Part shown: positions 4,363 through 12,984 of the stretch, one piece after another | Numbering within the stretch: the stretch's first letter is position 1 | Layout: the number at the start of each line of letters is the position of its first letter | Assembly (NCBI GenBank): GCA_029856365.1 | Contig: JAHQWW010000097.1 | Coordinates: 1 to 14,058, forward strand | Origin: Candidatus Hodarchaeota archaeon | GTDB lineage: Archaea; Asgardarchaeota; Heimdallarchaeia; Hodarchaeales; Hodarchaeaceae | Length of the DNA: 14,058 nt | Reading direction: 5' to 3' | Translations under genes and position numbers: made by a program | Notes under the pieces: model-generated | Told to the model about the DNA's origin: nothing | The model's input: the letters and a program-made list of their open reading frames with translations, nothing else | Databases searched by the model: none

Positions 4363-4500
4363 TCAATCTATTTCTGAAAAATCTTCCTTACCTGCTCCAC
4401 AATCAGGGCATGTCCAGTCATCTGGAAGTTCTGCAAATGGTATTCCTTCAACTTCTTCATCGTAAACATAACCACATATGTCACATTCCCATTTAGCCAT
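4363..4500 (-). CDS. Rubredoxin, short 45-aa type
   Basis: Below the ORF-track cutoff. [45 protein letters not shown] has CxxCGY, LPDDWxCPxCG and KxxF motifs. AGGTGA lies 5 nt before the ATG. Confidence 0.97.
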
Positions 4501-4798
4501 TATAATCACCTTTTTTCAATTAGTTTCCCATTTTTCAGAGGCTGTGAATTTTGTATGTTAACCAGGAGGATTTAGAATAACCTCGCTAGGAGAACTCATT
4601 CTTCAAGTTCTTTTAATAATGATTTCGGTTTAATGTCAGAGAGATATAATTATTTCCCAAAACATCATTTTTTTAACATTTTTTTGATCTAAAATTTTCA
4701 AAATGTGGAAATTATAACGTAACAGTTTTTTACTTGTAGAGAATTTCATTAAAATGCTGAAATTCGCTTGTATTAACATTCTTTACACGAAAAATGGT

Positions 4799-5128
4799 AT
4801 GAGTAGTTCGATTATGTCTTTAGATTCGATTAAAATCCCTGGGGACGTTGAAACTGTTGAAGGTACGAAAAAACAATATAGTGATATTTTTCTTTTTGCA
4901 ATCTCAACATGTATGTGGTGTAAAAAAGGTAAAAGATGGCTTAACGAGCACGGATATAGTTATTCGTACCTTGATATAGATAAAATTATAGTGGAGAAAA
5001 AGAACCAGTTGAAAAACGACATTGAAAAAGTCTTTGGAATTAGACCAAGATTTCCGTTTCTTGTTGTCAATAAGATGCAATATGATTCGGGATTTAACCC
5101 AGAAATTTGGGAGGAAATAATCCAATGA
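4799..5128 (+). CDS. Glutaredoxin-like (NrdH/Grx) protein with a CMWC active site
   Basis: LFAISTCMWCKKGKRWL...YSYLDID...RFPFLVV...SGFNPE gives a thioredoxin fold with CxxC, cis-Pro (FP) and GF motifs. Start uncertain (4754, 4799 or 4814). The stop overlaps the next ATG (ATGA at 5125-5128). Confidence 0.88.
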   Translation: MSSSIMSLDSIKIPGDVETVEGTKKQYSDIFLFAISTCMWCKKGKRWLNEHGYSYSYLDIDKIIVEKKNQLKNDIEKVFGIRPRFPFLVVNKMQYDSGFNPEIWEEIIQ

Positions 5129-5454
5129 CAAAAAAATCATATGATGATGTTCAGGAATACATAAAGAAAATCTCAAATCGAAAAGGGTGGAAGCTGAATT
5201 CTGACCCTGAAACCCTGAATGATTTGATCAAAGGATTATTAGATAACTTTAACCGATTAGGATACTATAATTGCCCTTGTCGTGATAGTCAAGAAGACCG
5301 TCAACTTGACAGAGATATTATCTGCCCTTGTCGGTATGCAGAACCAGATATAGCAGAATATGGTTATTGTTATTGCACTCTTTATTTAAACACCGATTAT
5401 GATCAAAACCAACTCATGAAAATGATTCCTGAAAGACGTCCCCCAATAATATAA
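5125..5454 (+). CDS. Ferredoxin:thioredoxin (glutaredoxin) reductase catalytic (beta) subunit
   Basis: GYYNCPCR...DIICPC...GYCYCTLY gives the CPC/CPC/CxC pattern of the FTR catalytic chain, with a C-terminal IPERRP. The ATG at 5125 has GGGAGG upstream and overlaps the Grx stop, so it is preferred over the TTG at 5107. Confidence 0.92.
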   Translation: MTKKSYDDVQEYIKKISNRKGWKLNSDPETLNDLIKGLLDNFNRLGYYNCPCRDSQEDRQLDRDIICPCRYAEPDIAEYGYCYCTLYLNTDYDQNQLMKMIPERRPPII

Positions 5455-5521: not shown

Positions 5522-6718
5522 TCAACTTACATCTGGTAGAACTTTTCTTATTTTAGTTTCATTGTCTGAAATGGATTTCTCTTCTGTAAATATATTTCTA
5601 ATTAGAGGGATAGCTTTTTTGAAACCTAGAATGATTGCCGCTTTAATTTTATCATTGTGAACATATAATTTAACATATTCATTCTCATTAACAAATTTTC
5701 TTACGCTATAACCTAATTCAGGTTCTTTTCCAGTGTAACCAAAAGAACTCAAAAATAAATCAGTTACTTTGAGAGTTGAAGATATCTTCGAACCCTTATA
5801 CTTTGTTTCCATATTAATCATATTATGAGCTGCGATTCTTGCTTGTTGAATACTAGGAGGAATAAGCCCATATACCATTCCATTATGTTCTGCACAATCT
5901 CCTGACGCAAAAATGTTTTTTTGTGATGTTTCTAAGTAATCATTAACAACAATACCACGATTAATTGCCAAGAAATCCTTTACCAGTTCTACTCTAGGCT
6001 TAATACCTGTGCAAGCCAGTACCAAATCTGTTGAGATTTCTAAACCATCTTTAGTAATGACTTGTTCCACTTCATTTTCTCCAGTAACTTTCTGTACTTC
6101 TTTTTTTACATAGATTTTAATTCCACGTTCTTCTAGTATTTTTCTGAGGATGTTTCCTCCTTCTAAATCCAATTGTCTTGGTAATAGATAAGGAAAGAAT
6201 TCAATAACGGTTGTTTCTTGGCCTTGTTTGGCAGCTGCGCTAGCAATTTCAAGACCAAGAACCCCACCTCCAATAATCACAGCCTTTTTACTTACTTTAA
6301 ATCGATCACGAATTTTTAATGCATCGCTAAGACTTCTTACCTCATAAAAATGATTTAATTGTCTTCCCTCGATAGGAGGGCACCAACAATCTGCCCCAGT
6401 AGCAACTAACAACCGATCGAATGGATAAGCTGTTTTGTGAGTTATAATTTCATTTGTTTTGATATTAATTTTCTCTACTTTTTCTTGAATATGTAAATCT
6501 ACTTCCAATTTTCTGTACCAGTTAATATTATAAGCAATGGTGTCTTCCACAGTCATCTTATTATTTCCAATGAAAGCTGGGATTTTTGGGCGGTTATAAT
6601 AACCTGGAAAAGGTTCATCTGTGAATTGGAGTATTGTCGAATTAGATGATTTTTCCTTCGCCAAGACTTGAATAGCAGAAACACCAGCTACTCCATTGCC
6701 TATAACAACGTATTTCAT
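5522..6718 (-). CDS. FAD-dependent pyridine nucleotide oxidoreductase, probable NAD(P)H:rubredoxin oxidoreductase
   Basis: FAD motif VVIGNGVAG, YNRP, LLVATG, NAD motif VIIGGGVLGLE, GIVVNDYLETS...IFASGDCAE. No Nox/CoADR redox cysteine near position 42. The specific role is inferred from the neighbouring SOR and rubredoxin. Confidence 0.85.
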   Translation of the reverse strand: MKYVVIGNGVAGVSAIQVLAKEKSSNSTILQFTDEPFPGYYNRPKIPAFIGNNKMTVEDTIAYNINWYRKLEVDLHIQEKVEKINIKTNEIITHKTAYPFDRLLVATGADCWCPPIEGRQLNHFYEVRSLSDALKIRDRFKVSKKAVIIGGGVLGLEIASAAAKQGQETTVIEFFPYLLPRQLDLEGGNILRKILEERGIKIYVKKEVQKVTGENEVEQVITKDGLEISTDLVLACTGIKPRVELVKDFLAINRGIVVNDYLETSQKNIFASGDCAEHNGMVYGLIPPSIQQARIAAHNMINMETKYKGSKISSTLKVTDLFLSSFGYTGKEPELGYSVRKFVNENEYVKLYVHNDKIKAAIILGFKKAIPLIRNIFTEEKSISDNETKIRKVLPDVS

Positions 6719-6832: not shown

Positions 6833-7189
6833 TTAGAGAGTAAGGGGTTGCTCATTTCTCCAAAAGCCGTGGATATTGCAGAAAGAGAACGCAATTAACG
6901 TTCCAGGTTTATTGGTCTTAATAGAAAAGAATCCTTTGGGTTCCGTCCGGCCGGCTTCCCCGTGCGAATTAAATTCAATCTTCCCAATTTCAACTGGAAA
7001 TTTCTCTCCTTCGGGGTGGAACAGGAGTTGAATCCATCGAATGTGATGTTCGACCGTATTTGGATGCTCAATTTCCTTTCCCACACTGACCTCAACCAAT
7101 ACTGGGTCTTTACTCTTTACTTCAATAACTGGAGCGTGTTTCTCCTTCTTCCAATCCGCTGACTGGAAAAATTCGTTATAATCTACCAT
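6833..7189 (-). CDS. sor: Superoxide reductase, 1Fe (neelaredoxin / class II SOR)
   Basis: EKHAP, HPNTVEHHIRWI and CNIHG supply the Glu, four His and Cys ligands. There is no desulforedoxin domain. AGGTG precedes the start. Confidence 0.96.
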   Translation of the reverse strand: MVDYNEFFQSADWKKEKHAPVIEVKSKDPVLVEVSVGKEIEHPNTVEHHIRWIQLLFHPEGEKFPVEIGKIEFNSHGEAGRTEPKGFFSIKTNKPGTLIAFSFCNIHGFWRNEQPLTL

Positions 7190-7246: not shown

Positions 7247-7732
7247 CTAATCTTCGCCTCTTACAGTATGTTGATCGAAGAGTATGTCATTTTTAAACGC
7301 AGCCTGCCTTTCCACCATTTCAGAGGCGTTAGCTTCTTCCTCGATCTGTTCGGTAACAAACCACTGTAGTAATTCTCTTGGGTTGTAATCTTTTAACTCT
7401 TCAGCTAGAGTCACCAGCTCATGAATTTTCCCTGTTATATATTGTTCGTGTGCATAACCTGTTTCTACAATTTCTTTCACAGAGGCCCAATCAGATTTGG
7501 GTTCAGGGATTGTTGGGATTTTAGCTGTTCCGCCGACATCAATGATATAATTGATAAACTTGTAAGCATGAGCTAGTTCTTCGTTGTATTGTGCCCAGTA
7601 CCAACTGGACAGTTTATTAAATGAATGTTCTTTCAACCAAATGCTCATACTCAAGTAAATGTACGCAGAATTAAGTTCTTCTCCAACTTGTATATTTAGC
7701 GCTTCATTGAATTTTTCACTAATTAGAACCAT
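7247..7732 (-). CDS. ftnA: Non-haem prokaryotic ferritin, 161 aa (start MVLISEKF)
   Basis: ALNIQVGEELNSAYIYLSM, EELAHA, HEQYITGKI and LQWFVTEQIEEE contain all the ferroxidase-centre residues. The ATG at 7732 has GAGG upstream. The track's TTG start at 7792 falls inside a hairpin. Confidence 0.95.
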   Translation of the reverse strand: MVLISEKFNEALNIQVGEELNSAYIYLSMSIWLKEHSFNKLSSWYWAQYNEELAHAYKFINYIIDVGGTAKIPTIPEPKSDWASVKEIVETGYAHEQYITGKIHELVTLAEELKDYNPRELLQWFVTEQIEEEANASEMVERQAAFKNDILFDQHTVRGED

Positions 7733-7767
7733 TTTTTTTTCCTCTTGACTCGTTATTAGACGTTTTT

Positions 7768-7806
7768 TTCTATAAAAACTTAACTCGCTCAAGACTTTTT
7801 ATAGAA
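7768..7806 (-). promoter_or_regulatory. Inverted repeat / bulged hairpin between prx and ferritin
   Basis: Minus strand reads TTCTATAAAAA-GT-CTTGA-GCGAG-TTAAG-TTTTTATAGAA: perfect 11-bp arms plus a 5-bp inner stem with one G-U pair. Confidence 0.6.
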
Positions 7807-7834: not shown

Positions 7835-8503
7835 TTAGAGCTTTTTATGGCATAACCACCAATCGAAACACTCAAACTCGCCTGCTTTAGCTTTTACAAG
7901 GCGTTCTTCTGCAGATTTAACATCAGAAGCAGGTGGGACGATGACTCGGTCTTTGAGGTCGAGACTTGTATTATTGGGCCAATCAGCAGGCATAGCAACC
8001 TTGTGCTTATCAGATACCTGGATGGCTTTCACCATTCGGAGTAGTTCATCAAAATTTCTGCCCAATTCTGGAGGATAATAGATGATTGTCCTAACAATCC
8101 CTTTGGGATCAATAAGAAAAACAGCTCGGACTGTACTACTTCCTTTTGATGGGTGCACCATTCCATACAAAGCACCAATCTCACCGTGATCAGCAATGAT
8201 TGGAAATTTAATCTCAACATTTAATTTCTCTTTTATCCATTCAACCCATTTAATATGACTAAACACTTGATCAATGGAAAGTCCGATCAATTCCGTGTTC
8301 AAAGCTTTGAATTCATCAAATTTCTTTTGAAATGCTACAAATTCAGTAGTACAAACAGGTGTAAAATCTGCTGGATGGGAAAATAAAATCACCCATTTTC
8401 CCTCATAATCCTTTGGGAAATTTACCGTACCATGTGTTGTTTTTGCCTCAAATTCAGGTGCAGGATCACCAATTAAGGGCAAAAAATATTCTTCTTCACT
8501 CAT
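7835..8503 (-). CDS. Peroxiredoxin, Prx6/archaeal type with a C-terminal CxDWWxC motif
   Basis: [15 protein letters not shown] peroxidatic motif, [29 protein letters not shown] and [15 protein letters not shown] precedes the start. Confidence 0.96.
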
Positions 8504-8805
8504 TTGTTTTCACTCCACTTGTGAATTTCACTAGTTTGGAAATTATTTTTCCAATATCAGAGTATTCTAAAATTATATTTTGCTTTTAGGTTCGAAAAAA
8601 TCACCATTGAATATAAAAACAGTTATTCAAAGGAAAAATTAATCTCTACTTTTCTTCTATTCAATAAATATTGTAACTTTGATTGTAATTGTATTATCCA
8701 ATGGTCTTTATGTTTTAAATGTATAGGTTTTAATAAAAACAAAGAATTACTTAAGAATATACCAAGGAAATATGCCCATAACCTTCATGTAGAGGTGAAT
8801 TAAAT

Positions 8806-9282
8806 ATGAACACACAAGAACGAGTTGAATTTTATAAAAGGCAGATTATATTAGAGGAGAAAATTGTAGACTCCGCAAATACCTCAGTGAAAGATGTTCC
8901 AAATATTATGGTTAAAGAACTGATTTTAGGTATTGCAATGGATTCTAAGAAACATGCTTCTTTGTTAAATGCACTTATTGCTTTAAATACAGGAAGTACT
9001 CCCTTAATCCCAGAAGAGACTACAGATCAATTAAAAGAAAACATTTCAAAGCACATTGAGTTGGAACAACAAGCTATCAATACTTATAAAGCATTTTGGA
9101 AGGAATTAGAGGACGAGAAAGAAAAAGTTGTTGTTAAGGCGATTTTAAATGATGAAATTCGTCATCATCAACTACTAAAACGTCTTCATGAAATGATAGT
9201 AGAAAAAGAAAAACTTACTGAACAAGATATCTGGGAATGGACTTGGAAAGATTCACTCTTTCACGGATCACCCGGAGGATAG
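8806..9282 (+). CDS. Ferritin-like / rubrerythrin-like four-helix-bundle protein, 158 aa
   Basis: Two internally similar helix pairs: LEEKIV...IAMDSKKH and LEQQAINTY...ILNDEIRH. No rubredoxin domain. C-terminal tail WEWTWKDSLFHGSPGG. GAGGTGA precedes the start. Confidence 0.8.
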   Translation: MNTQERVEFYKRQIILEEKIVDSANTSVKDVPNIMVKELILGIAMDSKKHASLLNALIALNTGSTPLIPEETTDQLKENISKHIELEQQAINTYKAFWKELEDEKEKVVVKAILNDEIRHHQLLKRLHEMIVEKEKLTEQDIWEWTWKDSLFHGSPGG

Positions 9283-9352
9283 AGTAATAACACTAATAGC
9301 AAGAAAATTTAAGACTTAGTAAAATTCAGTTCAAGTTAAGAGGTGAGGTTTT

Positions 9353-10525
9353 ATGATCGATTTTAGTTTATCACACGACCAGAAAAAACTCCAATTAAAG
9401 GCTCGAGAATTCGCTATTAATGAGATCATTCCAGTATCGAGAAAATATGATCAAACAGGGGAGTTTCCTCAAGAAGTTCTCCAAAAAGCTTTCGATCAAG
9501 GATTAATGAATACAATTTTTCCCCAAAAAATAGGAGGACCTGGTTTAGGGATACTAGACACTTGTTTGATAGTAGAGGAAATAGCTGCCGCAGATCCAGG
9601 AATTACCACAAGTCTTTTTGATAATTGTCTAGGAGCTGAACCCATTTTGATTGGAGGAACTGAGGAGCAGATTGATCGTTTTCTTAAGCCGTTAACTGAA
9701 GAATTAAAATTCATTGCTTTTGCAACTAGTGAACCAGGGATGGGATCGGATGTTGCGGGTTTAACTGCGACCGCTCGTTTGGAAAACGATGAGATTATAT
9801 TAAATGGTCGGAAAATGTGGGTTACAAACGGAGGAGTGGCTTCTCTACTCAGCATATTTTGTCGTTTGGAAGGAACAAAGAGACATGAAGGCATTACTGG
9901 CGTTGTTGTACCTATGGACACCGAGGGAGTGAAAATTGGTAAACCTATTCCGAAAATGGGCCATAAAGCTTCAAATACTGTGATGGTTCGGTTTGATGAA
10001 GTACATATTCCTCTAGAAAACATCCTTGGAGAGCTAGGGAAAGGATTCTCAATAGCTATGCAAACTTTCGCGCGTACTCGTCCAACAATTGGAGCATTTG
10101 CGTGTGGAATGTCCAGAGCAAGTATGGAATATGCAATTGCATATGCAAAACGTAGAAAAGCCTTTGAAACGGAAATTGCCAACTTTCAAGCTATTCAATT
10201 CATGATTGCAGAGATGAAAATGAATGTAGACGCAGCTCGTTTACTGACATGGAAAGCTGCTTGGGAAGCAGATCAAAATCGTGATAATACTATTTCAGCA
10301 AGTATCGCTAAAGCTTTTGCCACAGATTATGGGATGAAAACAGTATCAGATGCCCTCCAAATCTTCGGAGGATATGGTTACACAACAAACTACCTCATTG
10401 AGAAATTGTTCAGAGATGCAAAGCTTTACCAGATATACGAAGGAACTTCTCAAATCCAAAGGATGGTTATCGGGCGCTACTTACTTACAAAATATAATCC
10501 GATTTTTAATAAAACTTTCACCTAG
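9353..10525 (+). CDS. Acyl-CoA dehydrogenase (short/medium-chain-like)
   Basis: FATSEPGMGSDV, LNGRKMWVTNG, KMGHKASNT, FQAIQFMIAEM, ALQIFGGYGY and IYEGTSQIQ (catalytic Glu in the MCAD position). GAGGTGAGG precedes the start. Confidence 0.95.
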   Translation: MIDFSLSHDQKKLQLKAREFAINEIIPVSRKYDQTGEFPQEVLQKAFDQGLMNTIFPQKIGGPGLGILDTCLIVEEIAAADPGITTSLFDNCLGAEPILIGGTEEQIDRFLKPLTEELKFIAFATSEPGMGSDVAGLTATARLENDEIILNGRKMWVTNGGVASLLSIFCRLEGTKRHEGITGVVVPMDTEGVKIGKPIPKMGHKASNTVMVRFDEVHIPLENILGELGKGFSIAMQTFARTRPTIGAFACGMSRASMEYAIAYAKRRKAFETEIANFQAIQFMIAEMKMNVDAARLLTWKAAWEADQNRDNTISASIAKAFATDYGMKTVSDALQIFGGYGYTTNYLIEKLFRDAKLYQIYEGTSQIQRMVIGRYLLTKYNPIFNKTFT

Positions 10526-10536
10526 GAGATAATTTA

Positions 10537-11622
10537 ATGACATTAAGTTTTGAACAATTAAATCCACACGCGTGCTTGTCATATTTAGTAAAAAAGGAAG
10601 GATCAGAAGAGTCTGTCCTAATTGATCCCGTCTTAGACCATGTCGAAGACTATCTCAAGACGTTAAAAGATAAAAATTTAAGATTAACACATATCATTGA
10701 GACACATACTCATGCAGATCATATCTCGGGTGCAGCAGCAATCAAAGATCGTATGGATAGTAAGATTATTATGCATAAAAACGCACCTGCTAGGTGTGTA
10801 GATATTCGTGTCAAAGAAGGAGATGAACTAGATCTCCTAGGAAGTCCAATTAAAGTTATTCATACCCCTGGACATACTCAAGATTCGATATCATTAGTTT
10901 TTGAAGAATCTAATAGAGTTTTCACTGGTGATGCACTATTTTTAGATGAAGGTGGAGCAGGGAGAGATGATTTACCAGGAGGAGATCCTGCTAAACATTA
11001 CGACAGTATTCAGAAGTTTTTGAGTCTTCCCGAGCATTTTGTTGTATTTCCTGCTCATGAATATCGTGGTCGTCAACCATCCACGCTTGCTAACCAAAAA
11101 ACTAGCAATCCGCACCTCGAACCACGAACCCGAGAGGAATTTGTTCATTATCTCGAAGATCTGAAACTTGGTCCTGCAGATTGGATGCGTGATGTTCTTA
11201 AATCAAATTATGCATGTGCTCGTGATCCAGGAGGCATTTGGATACCTGTTGACTCACCTGCGTGTGAAGTAAAAGGTACTCTAGAAATAGGTGTTAATGA
11301 ACAGGTTGTTTCTTCAATATCAGTCCAAGAACTAAAGAATCGCTTAGATGGTCAACAGATACCTTTGATGATTGATGTACGAGAAGAAGATGAATTAAAA
11401 GGACCACTTGGCCAATTACGGGATATTAAACACATCCCATTGGCTCATCTAATTTCCAATCTTGAGGAATTATCCAATCTAAAGGATCAAGAAATTATTG
11501 TAGTATGTCGGAGTGGAGCCAGAGCTCATACAGCTGCGCAAATTATGCAGAAAAAGGATTTCTCTAAAGTATTTGTTTTGGAAGGTGGTATGAAAGCTTG
11601 GAGAAATTTTGCAGCTAGTTAA
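10537..11622 (+). CDS. ETHE1-like persulfide dioxygenase (MBL fold) fused to a C-terminal rhodanese domain
   Basis: LIDPV, ETHTHADHISG, TPGHT, FTGDAL, GAGRDD, PAHEY and NPHL in the MBL domain. IDVREEDE...HIPL...VCRSGARA...LEGGMKAW in the rhodanese domain, with the active cysteine present. It starts 11 nt after the ACAD stop. Confidence 0.9.
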   Translation: MTLSFEQLNPHACLSYLVKKEGSEESVLIDPVLDHVEDYLKTLKDKNLRLTHIIETHTHADHISGAAAIKDRMDSKIIMHKNAPARCVDIRVKEGDELDLLGSPIKVIHTPGHTQDSISLVFEESNRVFTGDALFLDEGGAGRDDLPGGDPAKHYDSIQKFLSLPEHFVVFPAHEYRGRQPSTLANQKTSNPHLEPRTREEFVHYLEDLKLGPADWMRDVLKSNYACARDPGGIWIPVDSPACEVKGTLEIGVNEQVVSSISVQELKNRLDGQQIPLMIDVREEDELKGPLGQLRDIKHIPLAHLISNLEELSNLKDQEIIVVCRSGARAHTAAQIMQKKDFSKVFVLEGGMKAWRNFAAS

Positions 11623-11646
11623 TTCCACCTAAAGAGTGAATATCTT

Positions 11647-12606
11647 ATGAATGATAGAAAAAAATACCCCACTGAAGAGGTTGAACCAGAGAATTTCTTA
11701 GGTAATGACGAGGTTATGAGGCTTTTAGAAACTCGTGAAAGTTATAAATTCAAACAAGAAGATTATCTAAAATTATTGAATTGTGTTCATTGTAATGCTT
11801 GTGGAACTTCAGAGGAGAGATGTCAGCTAAATCAAAAATTTTTAGAAGATGGAAATGAAATTGAGAGCCTTGCTGAAATGATTATAAGTTTTGAAAAGTA
11901 TGGTACTCCATATTCAACTGATAAAATGCGAATCAGAAAACCTGAAGGCATTCCTGAAGAAAGTAAGACCCTTTATTACATGGGTTGTTTATCAACCATT
12001 AGAGTTCCTCGCTATACTGAAAATTCTTTGAAATATCTCCTAAGACACAATATTGACTTTACTATTTTAGATAAGGAAATTTGCTGTGGTTATCCGTTAT
12101 ATGTATCTGGTGCCTTTGAAGATTATGAGAAATGTAAAAGAGAGAATATAGAAATATTCAAACACTATGAAAAAATCATTTGCGCTTGTCCTGCATGCTA
12201 CTATGTGTTTAAAACTCACTATCGGGAGGAACTTGATGCAGAAATCCTATTTGTGGTTGATTATTTAAAACCAACAAACAAAAAAAAAACAGGCCAAGTT
12301 GCTGTTCAACACCTCTGCCAATTAATGAATCGTGGACGTCCTGAAGTTACGAAGATTGTCAATGATGTCCTTCATGAATCGGGGTATAAGGTTCTTGATG
12401 TTCCTCATTGGTGTTGTGGAGGTGGGATTGGATATATGCATAGGCTAGATATTATCGACAAAATAGCAATAAAAAGAATGAGTGATTTTAAGGAAGGAGA
12501 TTATAGCACCACATATTGTGTTTCGTGTTGGTGGATCCTCTCCCGGTTTGGTAGAAAGTATAAAATCACACCAAAACCCAAAGATATTTTTGAATTATTA
12601 ATGTAA
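11647..12606 (+). CDS. Fe-S protein with two CCG domains (HdrB/HdrD/GlpC-like), no membrane segment
   Basis: N-terminal CVHCNAC...C. First CCG domain YYMGC...EICCG...CACPAC. Second CCG domain QHLC...WCCGGG...TYCVSC. It starts 24 nt after the previous stop. Confidence 0.85.
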   Translation: MNDRKKYPTEEVEPENFLGNDEVMRLLETRESYKFKQEDYLKLLNCVHCNACGTSEERCQLNQKFLEDGNEIESLAEMIISFEKYGTPYSTDKMRIRKPEGIPEESKTLYYMGCLSTIRVPRYTENSLKYLLRHNIDFTILDKEICCGYPLYVSGAFEDYEKCKRENIEIFKHYEKIICACPACYYVFKTHYREELDAEILFVVDYLKPTNKKKTGQVAVQHLCQLMNRGRPEVTKIVNDVLHESGYKVLDVPHWCCGGGIGYMHRLDIIDKIAIKRMSDFKEGDYSTTYCVSCWWILSRFGRKYKITPKPKDIFELLM

Positions 12607-12638
12607 CTTTTTTCCAATTCAGCCTTCAAAGGGGAGCC

Positions 12639-12677
12639 ATATACTTTATAAGTAGAACTAGATATCAATTTTTGATA
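12639..12677 (+). promoter_or_regulatory. Putative TATA-type promoter (ATATACTTTATAAG) plus palindrome TATCAA-TTT-TTGATA before the EncFtn gene
   Basis: TTTATA at 12645-12650, palindrome at 12663-12677 and AAGGAGGT at 12688-12695. Confidence 0.5.
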
Positions 12678-12702
12678 CATATTAGTAAAGGAGGTAAAAA
12701 TT

Positions 12703-12984
12703 ATGTTTGGTCAGGTACCTATTAATCTTGAAAAACTTAGTAAAGAACATATAAATATGGAAATACTACGGATAGCCCTAATTGCTGAATTGGATGCCAT
12801 AAACCTTTATGAACAAATGGCAGCTTATACTAACGATAGTGATACAAAGAAGGTTCTTTTAGAAGTAGCTAAGGAAGAGAAAGAACATGTTGGAGAATTC
12901 CAAACTCTACTACTAAGACTAGACAAGGAACAGGTAGAAGAGATGGAAGAAGGGAAAAAAGAAGTTGAAGAATTAACTGGGTAA
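12703..12984 (+). CDS. Encapsulated-ferritin (EncFtn/Flp)-type half-ferritin, stand-alone, 93 aa
   Basis: EILRIALIAELDAINLYEQMA...LLEVAKEEKEHVGEFQTLL...LDKEQ...EVEELTG closely follows, from memory, the N-terminal EncFtn domain of the Pyrococcus furiosus encapsulin fusion. Strong Shine-Dalgarno site. Confidence 0.88.
   Translation: MFGQVPINLEKLSKEHINMEILRIALIAELDAINLYEQMAAYTNDSDTKKVLLEVAKEEKEHVGEFQTLLLRLDKEQVEEMEEGKKEVEELTG

Follow-up and report, generated by a model that had tools for sequence, protein, structure and literature searches.

An MCAD-type acyl-CoA dehydrogenase, a persulfide dioxygenase-rhodanese and an HdrB-like Fe-S protein at the end of a redox gene island in a Hodarchaeales genome

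Organization of the locus

The DNA studied here is contig JAHQWW010000097.1 of a Candidatus Hodarchaeota archaeon (assembly GCA_029856365.1). This stretch of 14,058 nucleotides, hereafter the window, is a complete 14-kb contig (C121) of an Asgard metagenome-assembled genome (MAG) that is 83.6% complete, and its proteins have their best matches in Hodarchaeota/Promethearchaeota MAGs. Three genes on the plus strand are the subject of the analysis: they encode a 390-aa acyl-CoA dehydrogenase (ACAD) of the medium-chain (MCAD) type (9353-10525), a 361-aa persulfide dioxygenase-rhodanese fusion (PRF; 10537-11622), and a 319-aa soluble HdrD/EtfD-like Fe-S protein with two CCG domains (the CCG protein; 11647-12606). 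The initial annotation of this DNA, made from the letters alone, had put them forward as a candidate new enzymatic module flanked by ferritin-like genes.

The ACAD and PRF genes are separated by 11 nt and the PRF and CCG genes by 24 nt, and a candidate ribosome-binding site (RBS), AGGAGA, overlaps the ACAD stop codon; judging from the gaps and the RBS, the three genes are probably co-transcribed. The co-orientation and spacing given by the initial annotation match the coordinates of the open reading frames (ORFs), and the junctions are bridged by contigs of independent public runs (X3 and X4 for ACAD/PRF, X3-X6 for PRF/CCG); the same gene order recurs in related genomes. Pfam agrees with the domain identities assigned at that stage and with the ferritin-like flanks. 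The gene upstream of ACAD (8806..9282, plus strand; Pfam Rubrerythrin, 29 bits) encodes a 158-aa protein that resembles ferritins and the rubrerythrin di-iron domain and has no Cys, and it lies directly 5' of ACAD in all sampled close relatives with DNA on that side (L001, L024-L027). Downstream of the CCG gene, a small EncFtn-like ferritin-like protein is encoded at 12703..12984 on the plus strand (Pfam, 36 bits; NCBIfam EncB_fam, 71 bits, under the cut-off), with a TATA-like element of its own upstream.

The 5 kb upstream of the trio are occupied by further redox genes. These encode a rubredoxin (Rd) of about 47 aa (4363..4515, minus strand), a glutaredoxin-like protein (Grx; 4754..5128, plus strand; Pfam Glutaredoxin), a protein resembling the catalytic subunit of ferredoxin:thioredoxin reductase (FTR-B; 5107..5454, plus strand; Pfam FeThRed_B, 71.9 bits), an NAD(P)H:rubredoxin-oxidoreductase-like flavoprotein (NROR-like; 5522..6718, minus strand; Pfam Pyr_redox_2 and Rubredoxin_C), superoxide reductase (SOR; 6833..7189, minus strand; Pfam Desulfoferrodox, 106 bits), a ferritin/Dps-type protein (7247..7792, minus strand; Pfam, 127 bits), and a peroxiredoxin (Prx; 7835..8503, minus strand; Pfam AhpC-TSA and 1-cysPrx_C). 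The rubredoxin gene, shorter than the 60-aa ORF threshold, was recognized in a motif scan by its CxxCG...CPxCG signature, and its orthologue at L001 is called as PF00301. All these genes and the ferritin-like ones lie inside 8 kb. Given the upstream redox genes, the trio stands at the downstream end of an island of oxidative-stress and thiol-redox genes, and the informative context is this island against reactive oxygen species (ROS) together with the ferritin-like flanks, not the trio itself. No electron-transfer flavoprotein (ETF) or other beta-oxidation family was detected by Pfam and NCBIfam in window ORFs of at least 60 aa, as the initial annotation had stated; however, EtfB-EtfA is encoded on contig C160, directly after another ACAD, in a genome that holds six ACAD paralogues, and thus the lack of ETF beside the window ACAD is normal. 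A k-mer search for a shared operator in the intergenic regions of the island, which are AT-rich and yield many chance k-mers, returned GAATTTYACT near the Prx start (8523-8532, plus strand) and in the 70-nt spacer 5' of ACAD (9318-9327, minus strand); with two matches against 0.2 expected, and two reached in 3 of 200 shuffles, the motif is a weak candidate for a regulatory site common to both genes and was not relied on.

Distribution and linkage of the three genes

Presence of the three genes was scored in 399 Asgard species genomes, where the relatedness of the sampled genomes means that the counts overstate independence. The ACAD orthologue occurs in 243 of them, always in one copy, the CCG protein in 132, and PRF in 30. 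In family f20, whose members bear various Asgard names in NCBI (TXT64600.1, for instance, is labelled "Lokiarchaeota"), 104 of 135 genomes have the ACAD orthologue and 106 the CCG protein, and none has PRF; in the last three families, f31 and two others, 77 of 89 genomes encode ACAD and none encodes PRF or the CCG protein. The order ACAD-PRF-CCG was found only in six species of the Hodarchaeales-like genus to which the window belongs (G000, G074, G075, G067, G071, and G076). ACAD abuts PRF in the first three; a rubrerythrin gene stands between them in the other three, joined in G067 by a DOMON gene. A further species, G065, has ACAD-rubrerythrin-PRF with no CCG gene beside PRF, and in other species of the genus PRF and CCG are on separate contigs (G072) or one of the two is absent. 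The PRF and CCG genes are adjacent in all six genomes with this CCG subtype, at a gap of 24 nt wherever the ORFs were called. The array of G067 (L025:4764-11162) is co-oriented throughout and consists of the ferritin-like 158-aa gene, ACAD, DOMON (245 aa), rubrerythrin (194 aa), PRF, CCG, and, 24 nt after the latter, a YeeE/Sulf_transp gene (355 aa); glycosyltransferase genes then follow.

The PRF family itself is widespread, with 3268 matches that include Nitrospira, anammox bacteria, spirochaetes, and Sporomusa. A scan with one genome per prokaryote species gave 80 PRF loci, from which four close relatives were set aside. Among the other 76, bacterial and archaeal, none has an ACAD within 8 kb of PRF, and a CCG domain of any kind occurs near PRF at one, at the edge of the locus. 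The commonest PRF neighbour is the sulfite exporter TauE (21 of 73 loci), mostly in Nitrospira, so that these occurrences are not independent. In the Asgard family of Ca. Lokiarchaeum ossiferum, f19, the gene next to PRF is recurrently one for a DUF302 protein of about 131 aa (L014-L018, L020), and at four of these loci (L014-L017) the PRF-DUF302 pair lies among genes for RNase P Rpr2, EMG1, and CRS1_YhbY. Thus, each of the three window genes has a phylogenetic distribution of its own and, in other genomes, its own conserved neighbours; their adjacency is confined to a single subclade of one genus. With six species of a single genus as carriers, the trio is a lineage-specific arrangement and not a new conserved pathway, contrary to the module initially proposed. 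The observations that the initial annotation had named as telling against such a module are largely those made here: the genes are unlinked in other genomes, and the ACAD appears to be of the ordinary MCAD type, with ETF encoded elsewhere in the genome.

Predicted functions and contexts of the three families

The window ACAD contains all three ACAD domains (Acyl-CoA_dh_N, 93 bits; Acyl-CoA_dh_M, 81 bits; Acyl-CoA_dh_1, 160 bits) and matches pig MCAD (1UDY) over its full length at 369 bits, a Thermus ACAD also being among its closest solved relatives. The catalytic Glu of the YEGT motif is kept, with YQIYEGTSQIQR aligned to YQIYEGTAQIQR of the pig enzyme. By these features it is predicted to be an ordinary MCAD-type enzyme. 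Orthologues score 467-874 bits against it, compared with 179-188 bits for the paralogues of its own genome, and their clade has support of 100/99. Neither ACAD nor PRF nor the CCG protein reaches an NCBIfam equivalog cut-off; an assignment of ACAD as 3-sulfinopropanoyl-CoA desulfinase was rejected at 242 bits against a cut-off of 600, with the dehydrogenase Glu retained. With the MCADs that use ETF (pig and human, 1UDY and 1T9G; Thermus, 1UKW) it shares the full-length match, the catalytic Glu, the MWxTNGG segment, and the presence of ETF in the genome; it differs from them in that its Asgard orthologues are fused to rubredoxin or encoded in operons with rubredoxin and a flavodiiron protein (FDP), and in having no beta-oxidation genes alongside. 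Some of the best-scoring ACAD relatives (P0317, P0318, P0320, and others) consist of two ACADs in tandem and are about 770 aa long.

The orthologues of f20 link this ACAD lineage to rubredoxin. In 10 out of 10 checked loci, from five genera (g43, g45, g51, g53, and g55), the f20 ACAD carries an in-frame C-terminal rubredoxin; the fusion proteins are of 466-472 aa with a CxxCG...CPxCG signature (L042:8001-9398, L145-L153), and their database copies carry PF00301. The rubredoxin tail is nearest to the rubredoxin domains of FDPs and of Hrb-like flavin reductases, which are FDP electron donors. Where the f20 ACADs are unfused, their genes belong to tight Rd-FDP-ACAD operons, the gaps measuring 2-17 nt (L028-L034, L135-L143), as in L029, where Rd occupies 11364-11549, FDP 11706-12905, and ACAD 12908-14089; a flavoprotein with a fused Rd domain, resembling Hrb, adjoins FDP in relatives. 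The Rd-FDP-ACAD genes stand at one end of a redox block of 7-27 kb and a Grx-FTR-CCG cassette at the other; at least 25 f20 genomes have their ACAD and CCG orthologues on one contig, separated by 7-27 kb. The block contains genes for an NROR-Rd fusion, Fer4/AF_0155, HTH_10, FMN_red, Grx, FTR-B, and two CCG proteins, and its far end has thioredoxin-like (Trx-like) genes, then thioredoxin reductase (TrxR) where the fetched DNA extends so far. In a sister subclade of the window's genus, which includes Heimdallarchaeota B3_Heim, ACAD follows a 415-aa Grx-Pyr_redox_2 fusion at 12 nt (L046:6735-9167), and rubredoxin, FDP, and aldo-keto reductase genes are about 3 kb from it. Electron exchange between this ACAD lineage and an Fe(Cys)4 centre is well supported by the rubredoxin fusion, as read from the fused sequences, and would explain why an MCAD-like gene is present among the Rd, SOR, NROR, and ferritin/rubrerythrin-like genes of the window. 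No description of ACAD-rubredoxin fusions, or of Asgard ACAD/Hdr or ACAD/FDP links, was found in the searchable literature.

Fusions of ACAD with a short Rd-like domain of the rubrerythrin type (RUBY_RBDX) were also seen on other contigs, outside the Asgard orthogroup (L155:6001-7356; L157:4550-7416); these ACADs are 41-57% identical to the f20 fusion. One of the contigs is archaeal-looking. Another, which has c-type cytochrome genes, encodes two such fusions in tandem, of a bacterial type, and the first of them is 48% identical to the window ACAD; a ferritin/rubrerythrin-like gene of 155 aa, two genes 3' of this tandem pair, matches the 158-aa protein of the window at an E-value of 0.001, which is marginal and was not used.

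PRF combines a Lactamase_B domain (81 bits) with a Rhodanese domain (58 bits). Its closest PDB entries are persulfide dioxygenases (PDOs), not GloB: the PDO of Myxococcus (4YSB) is the best match (E 1.6e-46), and the fusion protein BpPRF of Burkholderia phytofirmans (5VE3) aligns over residues 12-356. Invariant in 20 sequences are H57, H59, D61, H62, H113, D132, and H174, which are the metal ligands of the metallo-beta-lactamase fold (HxHxDH and the distal ones), as is the rhodanese C324 in a CRSGARA loop (CRSGxR in the family) that aligns with the rhodanese domain of BpPRF. By architecture and active sites, the protein is thus predicted to be a persulfide dioxygenase-rhodanese fusion. Compared with BpPRF (5VE3-5) and CstB of Staphylococcus aureus, it has the same two domains, the full-length BpPRF alignment, the ligands, and the rhodanese Cys; it differs in belonging to an archaeon that may lack glutathione, in its location in an O2/ROS island instead of a CstR/BigR-type sulfide operon, and in two extra invariant Cys of the linker. 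The latter, C227 (NYACARDP) and C243 (PACEVKG), are invariant in 20 homologues from archaea and bacteria and might act like the shuttle Cys of CstB.

The CCG protein has two Pfam CCG matches (71 bits), an N-terminal CxxCxxC (C46/49/52) that is invariant across the Asgard orthologues, and two complete, likewise invariant HdrB-type motifs CX31-39CCX35-36CXXC (C114/146/147/181/184 and C224/256/257/291/294). It has no membrane helix (maximum hydropathy 0.76; longest modelled helix 15 residues). The best match of its AlphaFold model (pLDDT 85.8) in a fold search is mycobacterial EtfD (9OJN, TMq 0.70), followed by LutA and HdrB, and the model thus suggests a generic soluble architecture of the HdrD/GlpC/EtfD kind. 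The thiol:fumarate reductase subunit TfrB is its best NCBIfam match; this assignment was rejected at 64 bits against a cut-off of 385. An ETF:quinone oxidoreductase of the EtfD/FadF type was also rejected, as the protein has no transmembrane helices, a single CxxCxxC as against two [4Fe-4S] ferredoxin motifs, and five Cys per CCG site as against the four of the linear cluster of those enzymes (PMC13083937). With HdrB/HdrD and EtfD/FadF-type proteins it shares the two CCG domains, the full HdrB Cys pattern, and the fold match, whereas it differs in its one truncated CxxCxxC Fe-S motif, in the lack of membrane helices, and in its partners: HdrA/HdrC or HdrE subunits, as in the HdrABC or HdrDE complexes, are encoded neither in the window nor at the examined orthologue loci, and the conserved neighbours of the family are Grx, FTR, Trx-like proteins, and TrxR. 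Orthologues 57-65% identical to it are found in four other lineages (MAGs labelled Loki-, Thor-, Odin-, and Heimdallarchaeota) in a cluster of Grx, FTR-B, CCG, a second CCG, two Trx-like, and TrxR genes, and the window protein is the orthologue of the first CCG gene of this Asgard cassette. The window has Grx and FTR-B as well; however, the cassette is split there, its CCG gene being 6 kb from Grx-FTR, following PRF, and having no paralogous second CCG gene. In two lineages a conserved acidic ORF of 52 aa is located between FTR-B and CCG (L005:6738-6896; L006:4939-5097); it has a single Cys (DHCGT) and is not a rubredoxin.

Interpretation of the locus and competing explanations

We propose, with a probability of roughly one in two, that the trio forms a co-transcribed tail to an island, centred on rubredoxin, for defence against O2, ROS, and reactive sulfur, and that it is specific to one lineage and not a dedicated three-enzyme pathway. 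The condition served would be the intrusion of O2 into a sulfidic habitat, which would yield ROS, disulfides, and persulfides together. ACAD would oxidize an acyl-CoA and pass the electrons to rubredoxin, and from there to SOR, rubrerythrin-like, and flavodiiron reductases, a step suggested by the rubredoxin fusions and Rd-FDP-ACAD operons of its orthologues; the window ACAD may supply electrons to the defence in this way. PRF would use O2 to oxidize low-molecular-weight persulfides to sulfite or thiosulfate. PRF/CstB and CoA-persulfide reductases (CoAPR) are known to remove persulfides (PMC12934615), and CoA persulfide, which inhibits ACADs (PMC12661444), is one candidate substrate. The CCG protein, which accompanies Grx, FTR, Trx, and TrxR across the Asgard archaea, would use its HdrB-type clusters to reduce a disulfide or persulfide. 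What places the three genes on one transcript would thus be the common condition that they serve, and not a substrate passed between them. As to its history, an old Asgard redox block whose two ends were a Grx-FTR-CCG cassette and Rd-(FDP)-ACAD may have been compacted in one Hodarchaeales subclade, where ACAD and CCG would have been joined and PRF inserted between them. Of the three roles sketched in the initial annotation, protection from reactive sulfur or O2 is the one that fits a context of rubredoxin, NROR-like, SOR, ferritin, Prx, Grx, and FTR genes.

Several observations weigh against this interpretation. The contexts of the ACAD orthologue are not uniform across the Asgard lineages. 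In all seven sampled genomes of Thorarchaeota (f31; L035, L036, L037, L049, L051, L052, and L054) it follows an operon of HdrC-like, HdrB-like, FAD (417), and HdrA-MvhD (753) genes; between this operon and ACAD, five of the seven encode a large Fer4 protein, a homologue of the 761-aa protein in L051, and an unmatched ORF of about 970 aa occupies this place in L035 and L052. Its neighbours are non-redox genes in f12 (Hermodarchaeota) and f14. The window ACAD itself is not fused to rubredoxin, and ETF genes are present in its genome and in genomes with the ACAD-rubredoxin fusion; thus the fusion is not proof that the window enzyme uses rubredoxin, ETF use cannot be argued away by absence, and ETF may be the acceptor or a second one. 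The short gaps of 11 and 24 nt, the RBS over the ACAD stop codon, and the invariant PRF-CCG pairing could point to a tighter coupling than co-regulation, and the counts behind the distributions come from related genomes. As a separate observation on the Thorarchaeota loci, a hemerythrin-PAS protein is encoded downstream in L051.

PRF and CCG could instead form a two-gene sulfur unit with ACAD as a bystander, a persulfide on the rhodanese Cys or on a small thiol serving as CCG substrate and giving H2S, either without O2, as an anoxic back-up to the dioxygenase, or within thiosulfate assimilation. The constant adjacency of the pair, its integrity where rubrerythrin and DOMON genes split off ACAD, and the YeeE/Sulf_transp sulfur transporter gene after CCG in G067 all suit such a unit, as do the sHdr systems, which take sulfur from rhodanese/TusA relays, and the role in sulfur assimilation proposed for BpPRF. 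We nevertheless consider it unlikely: the families are otherwise uncoupled, as their distribution in f20 and the single CCG domain among 76 PRF loci show, the conserved partners of CCG orthologues are Grx, FTR, and Trx, and YeeE was looked for and not found in the window's genome, at its 83.6% completeness. A complex prediction for PRF and CCG, both entered as alignments, scored 0.03 (mark 0.32) and counts neither way on binding. That the three genes are merely unrelated neighbours, set in a row by rearrangement in a plastic island and sharing neither regulation nor function, would accord with their independent distributions and with the Prx, EncFtn, 194-aa rubrerythrin, DOMON, YeeE, and methyltransferase genes that vary between the islands of close relatives; it is improbable given that the gaps are too short for separate promoters, that all neighbours on both sides are redox- or stress-related, and that ACAD and CCG orthologues belong to a common redox block in a different class too.

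A further explanation, in accord with the co-occurrence of ACAD and CCG orthologues on the same f20 contigs, is an electron path between these two proteins, either from ACAD through ETF to a soluble EtfD/FadF-like CCG protein or with thiol or persulfide oxidation at CCG driving enoyl-CoA reduction, as in TfrAB. The couple of enoyl-/acyl-CoA is at about -10 mV and the thiol/disulfide couples are at -140 to -260 mV. With these potentials, the coupling of acyl-CoA oxidation to disulfide or persulfide reduction, as suggested in the initial annotation, would run uphill, and only the reverse, TfrAB-like direction would be feasible; that suggestion also finds no conserved linkage to lean on. TfrB as best NCBIfam match and the Thorarchaeota operons accord with such a path, as do the EtfD fold match of the CCG model and the precedent of EtfD, FadF, and DgcB, which accept electrons from ETF (PMC13083937). 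However, only in the six species does ACAD adjoin a gene of this CCG family, in f20 the two occupy opposite ends of the block and different transcription units, and the HdrB-like protein of Thorarchaeota is only 22% identical to the window CCG protein (P0003). The latter has the HdrB pattern of 5+5 Cys instead of the four-Cys linear cluster of EtfD and no membrane anchor, and EtfD is the sole solved single-chain protein with Fe-S and two CCG domains among the fold-search matches, which makes the match generic; we regard this path as decidedly improbable. A pathway degrading an acyl-CoA that contains sulfur (thia-acyl-, mercapto-, or sulfino-propionyl-CoA), in which PRF would remove the sulfur set free, had also been raised initially; it is least compatible with the data and appears highly improbable. 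The desulfinase is among the NCBIfam matches of ACAD, but far under its cut-off, and the active site has the catalytic Glu of true dehydrogenases; moreover, most genomes with the ACAD orthologue lack PRF, and scans of the window ORFs with Pfam and NCBIfam detected no CoA ligase, CoA transferase, or thiol dioxygenase.

The island itself is of a known kind, a rubredoxin-based oxidative-stress island with a thiol-redox cassette, and its unusual element is the link of ACAD to rubredoxin and FDP. In common with the rubredoxin systems of anaerobes (NROR-Rd-SOR/FDP/rubrerythrin; Hrb-FDP of Moorella) it has Rd, NROR-like, SOR, Prx, and ferritin-like genes, and in relatives Rd-FDP is directly coupled to ACAD; it differs in that the presumed electron donor is acyl-CoA, through ACAD, and not NAD(P)H, an arrangement of which a full-text literature search returned no description. 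We tentatively suggest, as a possibility that we hold with considerable doubt, that the Asgard MCAD-like orthogroup, including the window gene, represents an acyl-CoA:rubredoxin oxidoreductase that feeds FDP, SOR, and rubrerythrin-type peroxidases with electrons from fatty or branched acyl-CoA, and that in Hodarchaeales it is co-transcribed with PRF and an HdrB-like disulfide reductase as a single acyl-CoA-powered defence operon.

The evidence gives no support to a three-enzyme module, which would have constituted a new sulfur/CoA pathway. The soluble CCG protein found beside Grx and FTR across the Asgard archaea is an uncharacterised, highly conserved candidate for an Fe-S disulfide reductase. 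The broader point concerns the dehydrogenase: in the closest archaeal relatives of eukaryotes, an MCAD-like enzyme of the mitochondrial type has repeatedly been built into rubredoxin-based gene sets for O2 detoxification. If the acyl-CoA:rubredoxin assignment is true, these archaea would possess a soluble route, independent of a respiratory chain, that burns acyl-CoA against O2 and ROS. If acyl-CoA can fuel the reduction of O2 and ROS, this would bear on the oxygen tolerance of Asgard archaea, and the oxidative-stress systems of anaerobes would gain a new electron donor.

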